From assembly GCA_965204755.1 (NCBI GenBank), contig OZ242011.1, positions 3,712,001 through 3,776,000 on the forward strand: a stretch of 64,000 nt of DNA, given 5' to 3'. The stretch is from Candidatus Marinacidobacterium sp. Its GTDB lineage: Bacteria > Acidobacteriota > Vicinamibacteria > Marinacidobacterales > Marinacidobacteraceae. A program made the translations under genes and the position numbers. Of this stretch, positions 11,418-21,310 are shown piece after piece; within the stretch, counting starts at the first letter, position 1; the number at the start of each line of letters is the position of its first letter. A model generated the notes under the pieces. It had not been told where the DNA came from, searched no databases, and was given only the letters and a program-made list of their open reading frames with translations.

Positions 11418-13031
11418 ATGGCGCGTCGCCGCGAGAAGCCGAACGGCCGGGAGAAGGGACGCCCGGCAGAGGGGCAGGGCGCGACCACCGGTTACGAGGC
11501 GGAACTGTGGAAAATGGCGGACGCGCTGCGCGGCTCGATGGATGCCGCGGAGTACAAGCATGTCGTCCTCGGTCTTCTCTTCCTGAAGTACATCTCCGAC
11601 GCCTTCGAGGAGCGGCGGGCGGAAGTCCTTCGGCAGGAGGGAGAAGAAGCGGCCGAGGAGCGCGACGAATACCTCGGAGACCACATCTTCTGGGCGCCGG
11701 AGGAGGCCCGCTGGAAGGGAATCCGGGAGGCGGCGAAGCAGCCGGCGATCGGTGAGCGGGTGGACGCCGCCATGGCCGCCCTCGAACAGGAGAACTCGGA
11801 CCTTCGCGGTGTCCTGCCCAAGATCTACGCCCGCCCGGGGCTCGACCAGGCGCGCCTCGGCCAGTTGATCGACCGGATCAGCGGCATCACCGTGGGGGAC
11901 GCGGAAGCGCGGGCGAAGGATGTGCTCGGCCGCGTGTACGAGTATTTTCTCTCGCAATTCGCCGGCGCGGAAGGCAAGAAGGGCGGGGAGTTCTACACGC
12001 CGCGCTGCGTCGTTCGCCTGCTGGTGGAGATGCTGCGACCCTTCCGCGGAAGGGTGTACGACCCCTGCTGCGGCTCCGCGGGAATGTTCGTCCAGTCCGC
12101 CCGGTTCATCGAGGCGCATGCCACCGGGAACGGCGCCGCCCGGCGGAAGAAGGCTCGCGCGCTGTCGCTCTGGGGCCAGGAGTCCAACCACACGACTTGG
12201 CGGCTGGCGAAGATGAACCTCGCGATTCGGGGCCTCGACGCGGAACAGATCGCCATCGGCGACAGTTTCCACGAGAACCGCTTTCCGGACCTGAAAGCGG
12301 ACTTCATCCTGGCGAACCCGCCGTTCAATGTGTCCAACTGGGGCGGCGAGCGCCTCACGGACGACGCCCGCTGGACCTACGGGACCCCGCCTCGCGGCAA
12401 CGCGAACTACGCTTGGGTGCAACACATCGTGCACCATCTCGCGCCCGGCGGGGTGGCGGGCTTCGTCCTGGCCAACGGCTCCATGTCCTCGACCCGCGCG
12501 AACGAGGGTGATATCCGCCGGGGCCTCGTCGAAGCCGACTTGGTGGACTGCATGGTCGCGCTGCCCGGCCAGTTGTTCTACTCGACCCAGATCCCGGCGT
12601 GTCTGTGGTTCCTTGCCCGGGACCGCTCCGGGAAGCGGAAGTCGAGCGGGCGCGACAGGCGCGGAGCGATCCTCTTCCTCGATGCCCGGAAACTCGGCCG
12701 GATGGTGGACCGGACCCACCGCGAGTTGACGCCGGAGGACATCGGGCGGCTCACCGAGACCTATCAGGCTTGGCGCAGCGGAGAAGGGGGCTACGAGGAT
12801 GTCCCCGGGTTCTGCTGCGCGGTTCCGCTCGCGGAAGTGCGCCGCCACGAACATGTCCTGACCCCGGGACGCTATGTGGGCGTCGAGCCGATCCCGGAGG
12901 ACGACGAGCCGTTCGAGGAGAAGATGCGCCGCTTGACGGCGGAGTGGCGCGCGCAGCGGGAGGAGGGCGCCCGCCTCGACGCGCAGATCGAGCGGAACCT
13001 GAAGTCGCTCGGGTTCTGGGAACCCTCGTGA
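11418..13031 (+). CDS. hsdM: Type I restriction-modification methyltransferase subunit M
   Basis: [19 protein letters not shown]-binding [11 protein letters not shown], catalytic [14 protein letters not shown]. Confidence 0.95.
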
Positions 13032-14800
13032 ACTTCGACGCCGGGGAGATCGCCCGGCAGTTGCGCCTCGGCGAGGACAGCGACTGGGAATTCAAGGAGA
13101 TCGTGTTTCGCGGCGACCGCCCGGTAGGGCCGCGGCGGAACGATCTCGCCGACGAGATCGCGGCCTTCGCGAACGCGAGCGGCGGGGTCCTGCTGTGCGG
13201 CGTCCGGGACAGCGGGGAGGTCGTCGGCATGTCGCGTCCGCGGTTGGACGAAGTGGATCGACTGCTCGTAGAAGTGAGCACCGATGCGATAGACCCTCCG
13301 GTGCGTATCCGCGTGCTTCGGCGGGAAATCGAGGGCAAGGCGATCCTCATGGTCGAGATCCCGCCCGGCGATGCCCAGCACGACAGCCCGGGAGGGAGTT
13401 TCGTGCGCGTCGGCGCCTCGAAGCGGCACATGAAGGCTGACGAGCGCTTGCGGCTCGCGCAGAGACGCAGCCAGGCGAGGTACCGCTGGTACGACGAACA
13501 GGCCGTGCCGCAGACCGGATTCGGAACGCTCGACGCCGACCTGTGGAAGCCGTTGCTCACGGAGGAGGGCGCCGCCGCGCCCAAGTCCGGAGTGGCCAAG
13601 TTGGGACTCCTCACACCGGACGAAAAGGGGGGCCTCCGCGCATCCGTGGCCGGGATCCTCGTCGCCTGCCGAGAGCCGGAGCGGTATCTGCCGAACGCCT
13701 GCATCACCGCGACCCGCTACCGGGGCGTCGACCGCGCCTCGGGCCAAGCCGACGCCCGGACAATCACCGGCCCGCTCGATCGACAGATCGCCGAAGCGGT
13801 CTCCTTCGTAGTCCGCAACATGACGGTGGCGGCGGAGAAGGTCCCGGCCCGCGCGGAAATGCCGGAGTACCGCGCCGAAGCGATCTTCGAGGCGGTCGTC
13901 AACGCCGTTGCCCACCGCGACTACGGAATGCGGGGCAGCCGCATCCGGATATCCATGTTTTCCGATCGTCTGGAGATCCAGTCTCCGGGCGGTCCGCCGA
14001 ACGACCTCGAAGTGGCCGATCTGCCGCACCGGCAAGCGACCCGCAACGAGTTGCTGACCTCCCTCCTCGGGCGGATGTCGGCGGCCGGTGTCCACGGAGG
14101 GGGCGGGCGGCTATATTTCATCGAGAGACGCGGTGATGGCGTGCCGATCATTCGAAGGACCACCGAGGAACTCACCGGACGACTGCCGGAGTTTCGACTC
14201 GTCGGCGGAGCGGAACTCTGCGTGGTCATTCCGGCGGCGCCGCTCCGGGCGAGCGCCGGCGAGGCCGTGATCCGGGCGCGCCGGGAAGGGGTACCGGTTT
14301 CGGGCATCGAACTCTTCCTCATCCTCCCGGACGGAACGACGCGCCGCGCCGCTACGGGCGCCGACGGCGAGGCGCGTCTCTCGTTGCATCTGCGCGATGT
14401 GCCGGTCACCGTCTTCGCCGCCGGCGAGGGCTCCGCAGCCCGACTGGAGCGCGGTTGGCGGCCACTCGGCGGTCCGCTCGACCTGGCGATCCGGGAGATT
14501 CCGAACGGGGGATCCGTCGTCTTGGAAGAAGACGGAGGCGTTGTCCCGGGACTGTCCGGTCACCTGACCCTGAGCCGCGACGCCCGCGGACGCCTGCGGG
14601 CCTACGGGGCGCATCTCTCCATCGAGGAAGGGCGCCCGCAGCCGGTGAGTTTCCTGCCCGGGGAGGAGTTGCGGCTGACCGATGCCGAGGGGCGCGAGCG
14701 GATGGTCCGAATCCTGACGGTAAACGGTCCCGTGTCGCTCGTGGAATACCGCGATGTCGCCGAGCAACCGATTGCCGCCGATGAGAGGACCGCCGGATGA
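13028..14800 (+). CDS. Schlafen/AlbA_2 domain + HATPase_c_4-like domain + uncharacterised C-terminal beta-rich domain
   Basis: GTGA overlap with hsd[10 protein letters not shown]...[18 protein letters not shown] (AlbA_2); [12 protein letters not shown]...[10 protein letters not shown]...RN...ERRGDG (HATPase_c_4); about 170-aa strand-rich tail in place of the usual winged HTH. Confidence 0.85.
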
Positions 14801-15042
14801 CCGTTGCCGACCTTGTCTCCCTTCTCGCCAAGTACGACGGCGATCTGCGTGTCGTCGTGGACGGCTACGAGAATGGCTACGACGACATCGTACCCGAACG
14901 AATTCAGCGAATGAGACTCTGCCTCGATGTCGGCACCAGGGACTATGAGGGAAAGCATGACGAGCCGGGCTTCGCCGACGAACGCCGACGCCGTGAAAGT
15001 GTCGTAGTCGAGGCGATCTGTCTTCACCGCAGTTCGTTCTGA
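14797..15042 (+). CDS. Small hypothetical protein (81 aa)
   Basis: ATGA overlap with upstream stop and TGATG overlap with hsd[31 protein letters not shown]. Confidence 0.7.
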   Translation: MTVADLVSLLAKYDGDLRVVVDGYENGYDDIVPERIQRMRLCLDVGTRDYEGKHDEPGFADERRRRESVVVEAICLHRSSF

Positions 15043-21100: not shown

Positions 21101-21291
21101 TGAGGAACAGCGTCACCGTGGACTGGACGCTACGGGAGAGCGCGCGAGCGAACATCCGGCGGTTGGTGAAGCGGGTGCTTCGGAAGCACGGATACCCGCC
21201 GGACAAGCAGGAAAAAGCCACCCGGACGGTTCTCGACCAAGCGGAAGCGATCTCCGCGGATTGGCCGGAGACTGCCTCGAGCGCGGTCTGA
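18142..21291 (+). CDS. hsdR: Type I restriction endonuclease subunit R
   Basis: TGATG overlap; nuclease [19 protein letters not shown], Walker [33 protein letters not shown]-terminal YPPDKQEKA. Confidence 0.96.
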
Positions 21292-21310
21292 CCTCGACTT
21301 CGGTCGAGGT
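21291..21310. terminator. Stem-loop between convergent hsdR and TRAP permease genes
   Basis: Perfect 8-bp stem ACCTCGAC-TTCG-GTCGAGGT (C-UUCG-G tetraloop); no U-tract. Confidence 0.5.

Follow-up and report, generated by a model that had tools for sequence, protein, structure and literature searches.

Type I restriction-modification (RM) operons often hold embedded genes, and Payne et al. put 96.7% of them on the same strand as the operon (bioRxiv 10.1101/2024.01.29.577857). Here we describe such an operon in Candidatus Marinacidobacterium sp., a sponge-associated bacterium, within a stretch of 64,000 nucleotides (contig OZ242011.1, positions 3,712,001 to 3,776,000), called the window below. 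Besides hsdM, hsdS and hsdR, it carries a Schlafen/HATPase gene (Schlatpase), a gene for an 81-residue protein (orf81), and an ABC ATPase gene followed by a DUF4276 gene. Our results indicate that, most likely, RM is the first line of defense and two self-sufficient abortive modules share its transcript; we infer the triggers, the targets and the cotranscription. The cargo is not one new system, and its four genes are probably not one machine.

Each part has a published home. HEC-01, defined by Payne et al., is an ABC ATPase gene with an overlapping downstream DUF4276 TOPRIM gene, and a cold-seep preprint reports protection from one phage or more by another HEC-01. A published account treats DUF4276 as a TOPRIM family and a homologue of Mad4 (PMC12065111). 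Bacterial Schlafens are phage-triggered tRNases with the catalytic motif Ex4(E/D)xK; two of seven tested protected, neither of the HisKinase type (PMC13056530). Schlatpases occur stand-alone and fused to HsdS in type I RM operons of Poribacteria (bioRxiv 10.64898/2026.05.29.728809), and Schlafen-HisKinase and TOPRIM/OLD modules have been discussed for BREX as back-ups within DNA-modification systems (PMC12839542). PrrC (EcoprrI) and Ronin are further cases in which hsd genes have a toxic effector gene among them or next to them. PrrC, which Payne et al. place almost exclusively inside type I RM, and RonA are obligately linked to RM, whereas the modules of the window are not; moreover, its cargo lacks a HEPN anticodon nuclease, and orf81 is acidic and wholly soluble in its model, in contrast to the membrane toxin RonA.

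Organization of the operon

Seven ORFs without internal stops fill positions 11418 to 21291 of the + strand, with junctions of -4, -4, -1, +87, -4 and -1 bases.

11418 to 13031, +: hsdM, 537 amino acids (aa); Pfam N6_Mtase (E 8.9e-100) and HsdM_N, PADLOC MTase_I (E 1.8e-202)
13028 to 14800, +: Schlatpase (Schlafen/HATPase), 590 aa, GTG start; Pfam SLFN_AlbA_2 and HATPase_c_4, AlphaFold2 (AF2) model
14797 to 15042, +: orf81, 81 aa; homologues and phrog_7217, no Pfam, PADLOC or NCBIfam match
15042 to 16298, +: hsdS, 418 aa; PADLOC Specificity_I (E 9.2e-78)
16299 to 16385, +: 87-bp spacer between hsdS and the ATPase gene, from the sequence
16386 to 17465, +: HEC-01A ABC ATPase, 359 aa; Pfam AAA_21, PADLOC HEC-01A (E 5e-114, residues 2-357)
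17462 to 18142, +: HEC-01B DUF4276 protein, 226 aa, GTG start; Pfam DUF4276 (E 1.1e-41), PADLOC HEC-01B (E 1.8e-63)
18142 to 21291, +: hsdR, 1049 aa; Pfam T1RH-like_C, HSDR_N and SWI2_SNF2, TIGR00348

The gene order, the single strand, the overlapping junctions and the 87-bp gap had been described in an original prediction made from the letters alone; a re-check of the ORFs confirmed them, the Pfam assignments agree, and the proposed PADLOC check returned HEC-01A, HEC-01B, MTase_I and Specificity_I. Its premise that type I RM operons are sites of embedded genes is borne out by Payne et al., and because 96.7% of such cargo is same-strand by their count, the same-strand embedding is not itself unusual.

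The frames and motifs of hsdM, hsdS and hsdR are intact, and HsdR belongs to the HindI-like family (TIGR00348, 567 bits versus a cut-off of 284.55). In HsdM we take DPCCGSAG to be motif I and NPPF to be motif IV, and HsdR has what we take to be its PD...ELK, TQGSGKS and DEAH motifs. The operon thus appears to be an intact type I RM operon of the HindI-like family, whose motifs predict restriction activity.

An assembly artifact is ruled out because a single 7384-bp contig from a sponge metagenome (run X4, study P3) independently spans 12198 to 19581, with 28 differences. A sister strain in a second sample (run X6, contig 19) retained the cargo, exchanged the second target-recognition domain (TRD) of HsdS (15662 to 16233, residues 207-398) and has a one-base deletion in orf81 at 14882. 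Its HEC-01 side (16234 to 18795) shows 157 letter differences from the window over 2.6 kb and its Schlatpase side 48 over 1.8 kb, an uneven divergence that suggests a recombination tract beginning in hsdS.

The hsdS start was set at 15042, giving the overlap with orf81, because this makes the longest ORF; starting at 15066 fits the homologue in relative G001 equally well. The 87-bp spacer is in frame and open from the hsdS TAG to the ATPase ATG (chance, ~0.2). A fusion of HsdS and the ATPase was rejected, the in-frame spacer being within chance; an HsdS domain was found in 0 of 9 longer homologues, which is weak evidence.

The ATPase-DUF4276 pair

By profile, the ATPase and DUF4276 genes are the HEC-01 pair that PADLOC catalogues as a candidate system: the ATPase is a full-length match to HEC-01A, and the overlapping downstream gene matches HEC-01B. 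The ATPase has Walker A GANGAGKS, signature MSDG and Walker B IFIDE, all conserved in 14 aligned homologues. The acidic TOPRIM residues E8, D73, E127 and E129 of the DUF4276 protein are invariant in an alignment of 12; Y75 of the family is F here, giving D-x-F where the family has D-x-Y, neither being the classical DxD. The window pair differs from published HEC-01 also in lying inside type I RM, not Hma, and in belonging to a subclade that prefers the hsdS-hsdR slot.

An ABC ATPase with a TOPRIM nuclease is likewise found in PARIS, OLD, Gabija and the mad3-mad4 genes of MADS. Membership in MADS was rejected on mad2 and mad3 scores far under the curated cut-offs (44.9 versus 720 bits, and 88 versus 420 bits for MADS3) and on the absence of other mad genes. 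Membership in PARIS was rejected on the partner, which is DUF4276 in the window and, as reported, DUF4435 for AriB (PMC11464382).

Of 68 fetched loci with relatives of HEC-01A, 4 contain type I hsd genes (3 of 48 when only loci of at least 19 kb are counted) and 11 any methylase or SNF2 hit; such neighbor counts, here and for the module genes below, were made by tblastn with few hsd, mod and res queries and would miss distant RM families. Two inspected plasmid copies are embedded beside type III-type mod/res genes.

Several variants of the pair were seen. In relative G001, locus L021 (10813 to 13159) holds a tandem pair of HEC-01A ATPases, with 67% and 48% identity to that of the window and with one truncated DUF4276 between the two of them to share; the second ATPase has an altered Walker A, GDNEAGKS, and hsdM is frameshifted there. 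Protein P0186, with 99% identity in its first parts, was considered as an ATPase-DUF4276-HsdR fusion and rejected: its frame changes at a G-run and inside DUF4276, and it was read as an indel-error gene call. By precomputed Pfam accessions, P0191 to P0194 are HEC-01A-like ATPases fused to further domains, presumably LRR-Roc-COR-type, MmeI-like methylase, TPR/NACHT-type and PNP-type.

The Schlatpase and its C-terminal module

The Schlatpase consists of three parts, the last being a module of two domains.

13073 to 13435, +: Schlafen (AlbA_2) domain, residues 16-136, by Pfam
13889 to 14227, +: GHKL ATPase, N-box E288-x3-N292 through HATPase_c_4 (303-400), by Pfam and conservation
14252 to 14503, +: module domain A, residues 409-492, transthyretin/CnaB-type immunoglobulin (Ig)-like beta-sandwich
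14504 to 14761, +: module domain B, residues 493-578, all-beta, probable permuted FHA (pFHA); AF2 model, identity from architecture

The protein contains SLFN_AlbA_2 and PF13749 within one chain and thus belongs with the published Schlatpase/pSlfn1 proteins, with catalytic and ATP-binding residues in place. The Schlafen catalytic motif is intact (E16-x4-E21-x-K23), and E288 and N292 of the GHKL domain are invariant across 18 homologues; by spacing, they would match E314 and N318 of RzAgo, which bind Mg-ATP. The AF2 model has a pLDDT of 82.7, with DIP2311 (3LMM) as the top PDB match. The difference lies at the C terminus: published Schlatpases add nothing, a helix-turn-helix or an Argonaute core, whereas the window protein adds a beta module of ~170 residues (409-578, positions 14252 to 14761), which the original prediction overlooked.

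The module is widespread (734 clusters at 50% identity), and domain B is strongly conserved at G92, P95, G99, P103, D106, R110, Q126, P127 and D140 (profile numbering, 150 hits). Its fusion partners in other proteins include TIR, caspase, trypsin, kinase, PIN and DUF4143 effectors as well as M48 and DUF4062-HATPase. It lies C-terminally on ParA in a TIR-ParA pair, where WP_331375610.1 (ParA-TIR-module) stands behind a TIR ORF. Fusion to many unrelated immune effectors and placement on ParA-TIR are the hallmark of a self-sufficient sensor, the role that these architectures predict for it.

A preprint on Ig + pFHA systems describes, as a purely computational prediction, a two-domain module with an N-terminal Ig-like sandwich on TIR-ParA proteins and fused to TIR, Schlafen, S/T/Y kinase, PIN and DUF4143 (bioRxiv 10.64898/2026.10.19.760177). 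This preprint overturned our candidate explanation of an undescribed domain. Since the array of TIR, Schlafen, kinase, PIN and DUF4143 effectors is the same, the module is probably, by architecture, the Ig + pFHA module. The text of the preprint does not mention the caspase, trypsin, M48 and DUF4062-HATPase partners seen here, nor tandem and B-only copies, hydrophobic segments ahead of the module, or a place in type I RM; its figure 6D and supplements may show some of these. A composition of Schlafen HisKinase with Ig is not visible in the 55-architecture pSlfn table, where pSlfn1 may hide extra domains and the pSlfn5 entry is cut short.

Other searches were less informative. Domain B is all-beta in the model, and whole-protein fold searches were filled by the other domains. 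The best E value against PDB sequences was 0.005, which is uninformative, and the best ESM Atlas value was 0.79. No NCBIfam family or PADLOC family covered the module in the 28 and 30 proteins scanned, PF12538, for a comparison with the permuted FHA fold of EssC-N, was found in 0 of 201 genomes searched, and no module was found in phage records or viral contigs with the queries used.

Plasmid NZ_CP133151.1 of Sinorhizobium chiapasense (locus L206, 3164 to 8795), a cultured source of the module, carries a patatin-like gene, a TIR ORF annotated short although a 196-aa frame is open, and the ParA-TIR-module gene, as well as three further TIR genes, UvrD and AbiEii. An AAA_14-DUF4143 (PDC-S01-like) protein of relative G015 (locus L141, 8586 to 10265) has the same C-terminal module. 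Seven proteins (P0024, P0025, P0027, P0058, P0073, P0093 and P0099) have tandem copies or a leading B alone (B-AB and B-AB-AB), and several carry transmembrane or signal-like segments; because B-only copies occur in front, the Ig partner is not strictly obligate. In the genome of the window itself, several Schlatpase pieces lie within 9 kb (G000:C1, 1934674 to 1943112).

orf81

orf81 has 8 homologues of 39 to 96% identity and is net acidic in all 10 aligned members, each of which matches phrog_7217 (best E 1.3e-5). Its nearest ESM Atlas clusters (0.92 to 0.93) are mostly viral. It was found in five of 41 genomes; four have it in the hsdM-hsdS interval, and the remaining one has it behind a Schlatpase, close to an hsdR relic. 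Two of 36 metagenome loci have it after hsdM and one after a Schlatpase, while several others have phage-family neighbors such as DNA polymerase, RNA ligase and primase (20 ORFs in 9 loci scanned). A fold search with its model (pLDDT 64.6) gave no BFVD match at E<=0.001 and weak hits to small uncharacterized phage proteins. By homology, orf81 is a real gene of a phage-type family and appears to be a dispensable passenger, because it is broken by a frameshift in two relatives (G022 and run X6).

Turnover of cargo and movement of the operon

As kin we used the 14 best intact-context hsdR orthologues (48 to 77% identity), leaving out the truncated copy of relative G003. All 14 orthologous hsd operons hold embedded genes, and none holds the four-gene set of the window. 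Among the 14, a HEPN gene with a nucleotidyltransferase-HsdS occurs in 9, Schlatpase in 4, orf81 in 3, the HEC-01 pair in 2 (plus one DUF4276 fragment), PDC-M02, PDC-M24 and Abi_C in 2 each, and Kiwa, PDC-S06, RhuM/Fic and an insertion sequence in 1 each. In those 9 (among loci L022 to L033), the HsdS has a nucleotidyltransferase domain at its N terminus, an antitoxin-like domain physically tied to RM, and the HEPN-like NTase_sub_bind gene comes before it. From relative to relative the cargo is freely exchanged, and the Schlatpase site varies too, being before hsdS, after hsdS or before hsdM (locus L208). Schlatpase and HEC-01 occur together again in only one operon (relative G005), which fits independent insertion, because 4/14 x 2/14 x 14 gives an expectation of 0.6.

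Of the loci whose genes carry the C-terminal module, 7 of 22 from close kin and 2 of 15 from a phylum-wide sample, 9 of 37 in total, have type I hsd genes, or relics of them, as direct neighbors. The host genome has 16 SLFN_AlbA_2 and 7 DUF4276 matches.

The operon itself probably moves between sites and serves as a landing pad for autonomous defense genes. Its insertion is delimited as follows.

11278 to 21322, no strand: whole insertion; on its left the stop codon of a PQQ-like beta-propeller gene, on its right that of a TRAP DctM gene

In all five relatives tested, the flanking genes (9850 to 11277, +, PQQ_2 by Pfam; 21323 to 23278, -) are next to each other with no hsd genes between them, at a distance of 25 bp to 1.6 kb: ~25 bp in G008, with other small cargo in G001, G014 and G022. 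The cargo at the site in G001 is a PIN toxin-antitoxin-like pair. The GC content of the insertion is 0.668 versus 0.717 for the genome and is lowest in orf81 (0.585). The closest named relatives are Acidobacteriota.

Interpretation of the locus

Our preferred explanation builds on the observed gene anatomy, motifs, mobility and fusion patterns. RM would cut unmethylated incoming DNA, as is established for the family. The Ig-pFHA module would bind a phage ligand, upon which ATP-driven oligomerization would assemble the active Schlafen form and tRNA would be cut. The working model is pSlfn5, a Schlafen tRNase governed by a C-terminal beta-sandwich that binds a phage tail assembly chaperone (PMC13056530); pSlfn5 has no GHKL ATPase, and the two Ig-like domains are likened by description. 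By analogy with PARIS and OLD, the HEC-01 ATPase would hold the TOPRIM nuclease inactive and release it on a phage trigger. Both nuclease modules would sense infection independently and give abortive back-up, with orf81 as a passenger that has no essential part. We judge the case for the sensor part alone evenly balanced: whether the Ig-pFHA module, which effectors of the TIR, caspase, trypsin, kinase and PIN kinds have in common on either side of the membrane, detects a conserved phage peptide and switches on ATP-driven tRNA cleavage.

Several observations weigh against this explanation. The one HEC-01 copy tested by Payne et al. gave no protection, and tested Schlafen-HisKinase fusions showed no defense in E. 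coli (PMC13056530). Two sets of findings suggest genuine coupling to RM. One consists of fusions, of Schlatpase to HsdS and of a TRD to Schlafen (pSlfn19, 13 proteins). The other is the placement of HEC-01. A quick tree was made of 61 HEC-01A ATPases (11 of the 68 loci had no match over 300 residues and were excluded). In the clade of the window (SH-aLRT 99), 7 of 8 rows either occupy the hsdS-hsdR slot or stand in front of an hsdR relic, versus 1 of 53 other rows; the seven come from 6 genomes, and four of the eight are additions from kin, which makes the rows non-independent. Of 17 non-self DUF4276 hits in 40 relatives, the top three each lie ahead of hsdR. Finally, a hydrophobic segment occurs in 28 of 150 module proteins. 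Some copies are thus likely to face outward, and a purely cytosolic phage-protein ligand leaves these unexplained.

These observations raise the possibility of a guard like PrrC, restricted to HEC-01, in which the ATPase monitors the RM complex or anti-restriction proteins and unleashes the TOPRIM nuclease if RM is blocked. The RM-preferring subclade spans two acidobacterial lineages and one Bacteroidota genome, its slot is conceptually that of PrrC, the methylase, SNF2 and mod/res neighbors point the same way, and Payne et al. describe related ABC-ATPase systems triggered by Ocr and Stp. We nevertheless consider such a guard unlikely. PrrC is found almost only in type I RM and HEC-01 mostly elsewhere; clade member L036 has no hsd gene in its 19-kb locus; the DUF4276 partner is absent in L037 and truncated in G001, where hsdM is broken; and common ancestry of a mobile block from hsdS to hsdR accounts for the clade with no need of physical contact. 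PrrC-type near-exclusive embedding was accordingly rejected for both modules (HEC-01A 4/68, module genes 9/37), with one HEC-01 subclade alone coming loosely near it. For the Schlafen, the 9 of 37 loci near type I hsd genes or relics make the guard case weak. More elaborate, and somewhat less probable still, is a scheme of three layers in which the HEC-01 subclade is a TOPRIM counterpart of PrrC firing on an attack on HsdMSR, the Schlatpase module recognizes a conserved phage peptide, and orf81 is a captured phage protein that serves as decoy or damper. Because both modules have most of their homologues outside type I RM, an obligate guard is poorly supported.

The cargo could instead be mostly hitchhiking, partly decaying DNA with little or no defense benefit from the window copy. 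The many Schlafen and DUF4276 matches in one genome, truncated Schlatpases in kin loci (L024, L033, L139 and L149), the frameshifted copies of orf81, and an insertion site that accepts unrelated cargo in relatives would all fit. The catalytic motifs of all three enzymes are kept, however, the block is intact in an independent sample, and homologues of both module types have shown defense, and we regard this explanation as improbable, slightly more so than the three-layer scheme. Most improbable of all is a dedicated four-gene cargo system coevolved with the RM operon, with orf81 as regulator. Its attractions are the shared operon of G005 and the position of orf81 directly after Schlatpase in G000, G014, G022 and L152; yet that single co-occurrence equals the expectation for independent insertion, orf81 follows hsdM without Schlatpase in G006, G009, L156 and L160, and most Schlatpase-module genes have no orf81.

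Two modules sharing the transcript of an RM operon thus remain our preferred explanation, and the locus itself is an ordinary case of defense genes embedded in type I RM. The original prediction is right that both modules are of defense type (a HEC-01 homologue is protective, and Schlafens are tRNases) and probably right that they are second lines of defense, whereas its guards in the manner of PrrC are a weak case for the Schlafen and a candidate for one HEC-01 subclade only. Its expectation of cargo homologues near RM is matched by that subclade, and HEC-01A and the module genes at large mostly lie elsewhere. The combination that it did not recognize as a named system is HEC-01 plus a Schlatpase, itself published from type I RM operons, and the same four-gene set was found in none of the 14 kin operons. 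New here are the three-part Schlafen, the slot-preferring HEC-01 subclade and a phage-like orf81 recurring after hsdM.

The first two lend themselves to direct tests. The Schlafen joins a known read-out (tRNA cleavage) and a known switch (GHKL oligomerization) to a widespread sensor-like module; because both are known, the ligand, for which the papers searched hold no measurement, is open to toxicity screens and domain swaps. The subclade allows RM guarding by HEC-01 to be examined in the same way.

Boundaries and neighboring genes

The closing hairpin of the original prediction is present between the convergent genes.

21291 to 21310, +: hairpin, GC-rich perfect 8-bp stem, UUCG loop, no U-tract

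The terminator scan did not call it, and the surrounding 51-nt stretch is only a little more stable than its shuffles, 10 of 200 of which did as well (z -1.79). No sigma-70-like promoter was found for the operon in a promoter scan, nor were repeats found bounding the insertion. Several GC-rich hairpins lie in the 140-nt leader (11278 to 11417), whose fold is equaled by 4 of 200 shuffles (z -2.19). On the 5' side of the operon lies an array of PQQ-like beta-propeller genes (5190 to 11277), of which the family scan covered 9850 to 11277 only. Among them, a 317-aa ORF (6574 to 7527, +) with no Pfam, PADLOC or NCBIfam family has a CxxC motif at its start, and one PQQ-like gene has, by eye, an ankyrin-like N terminus.

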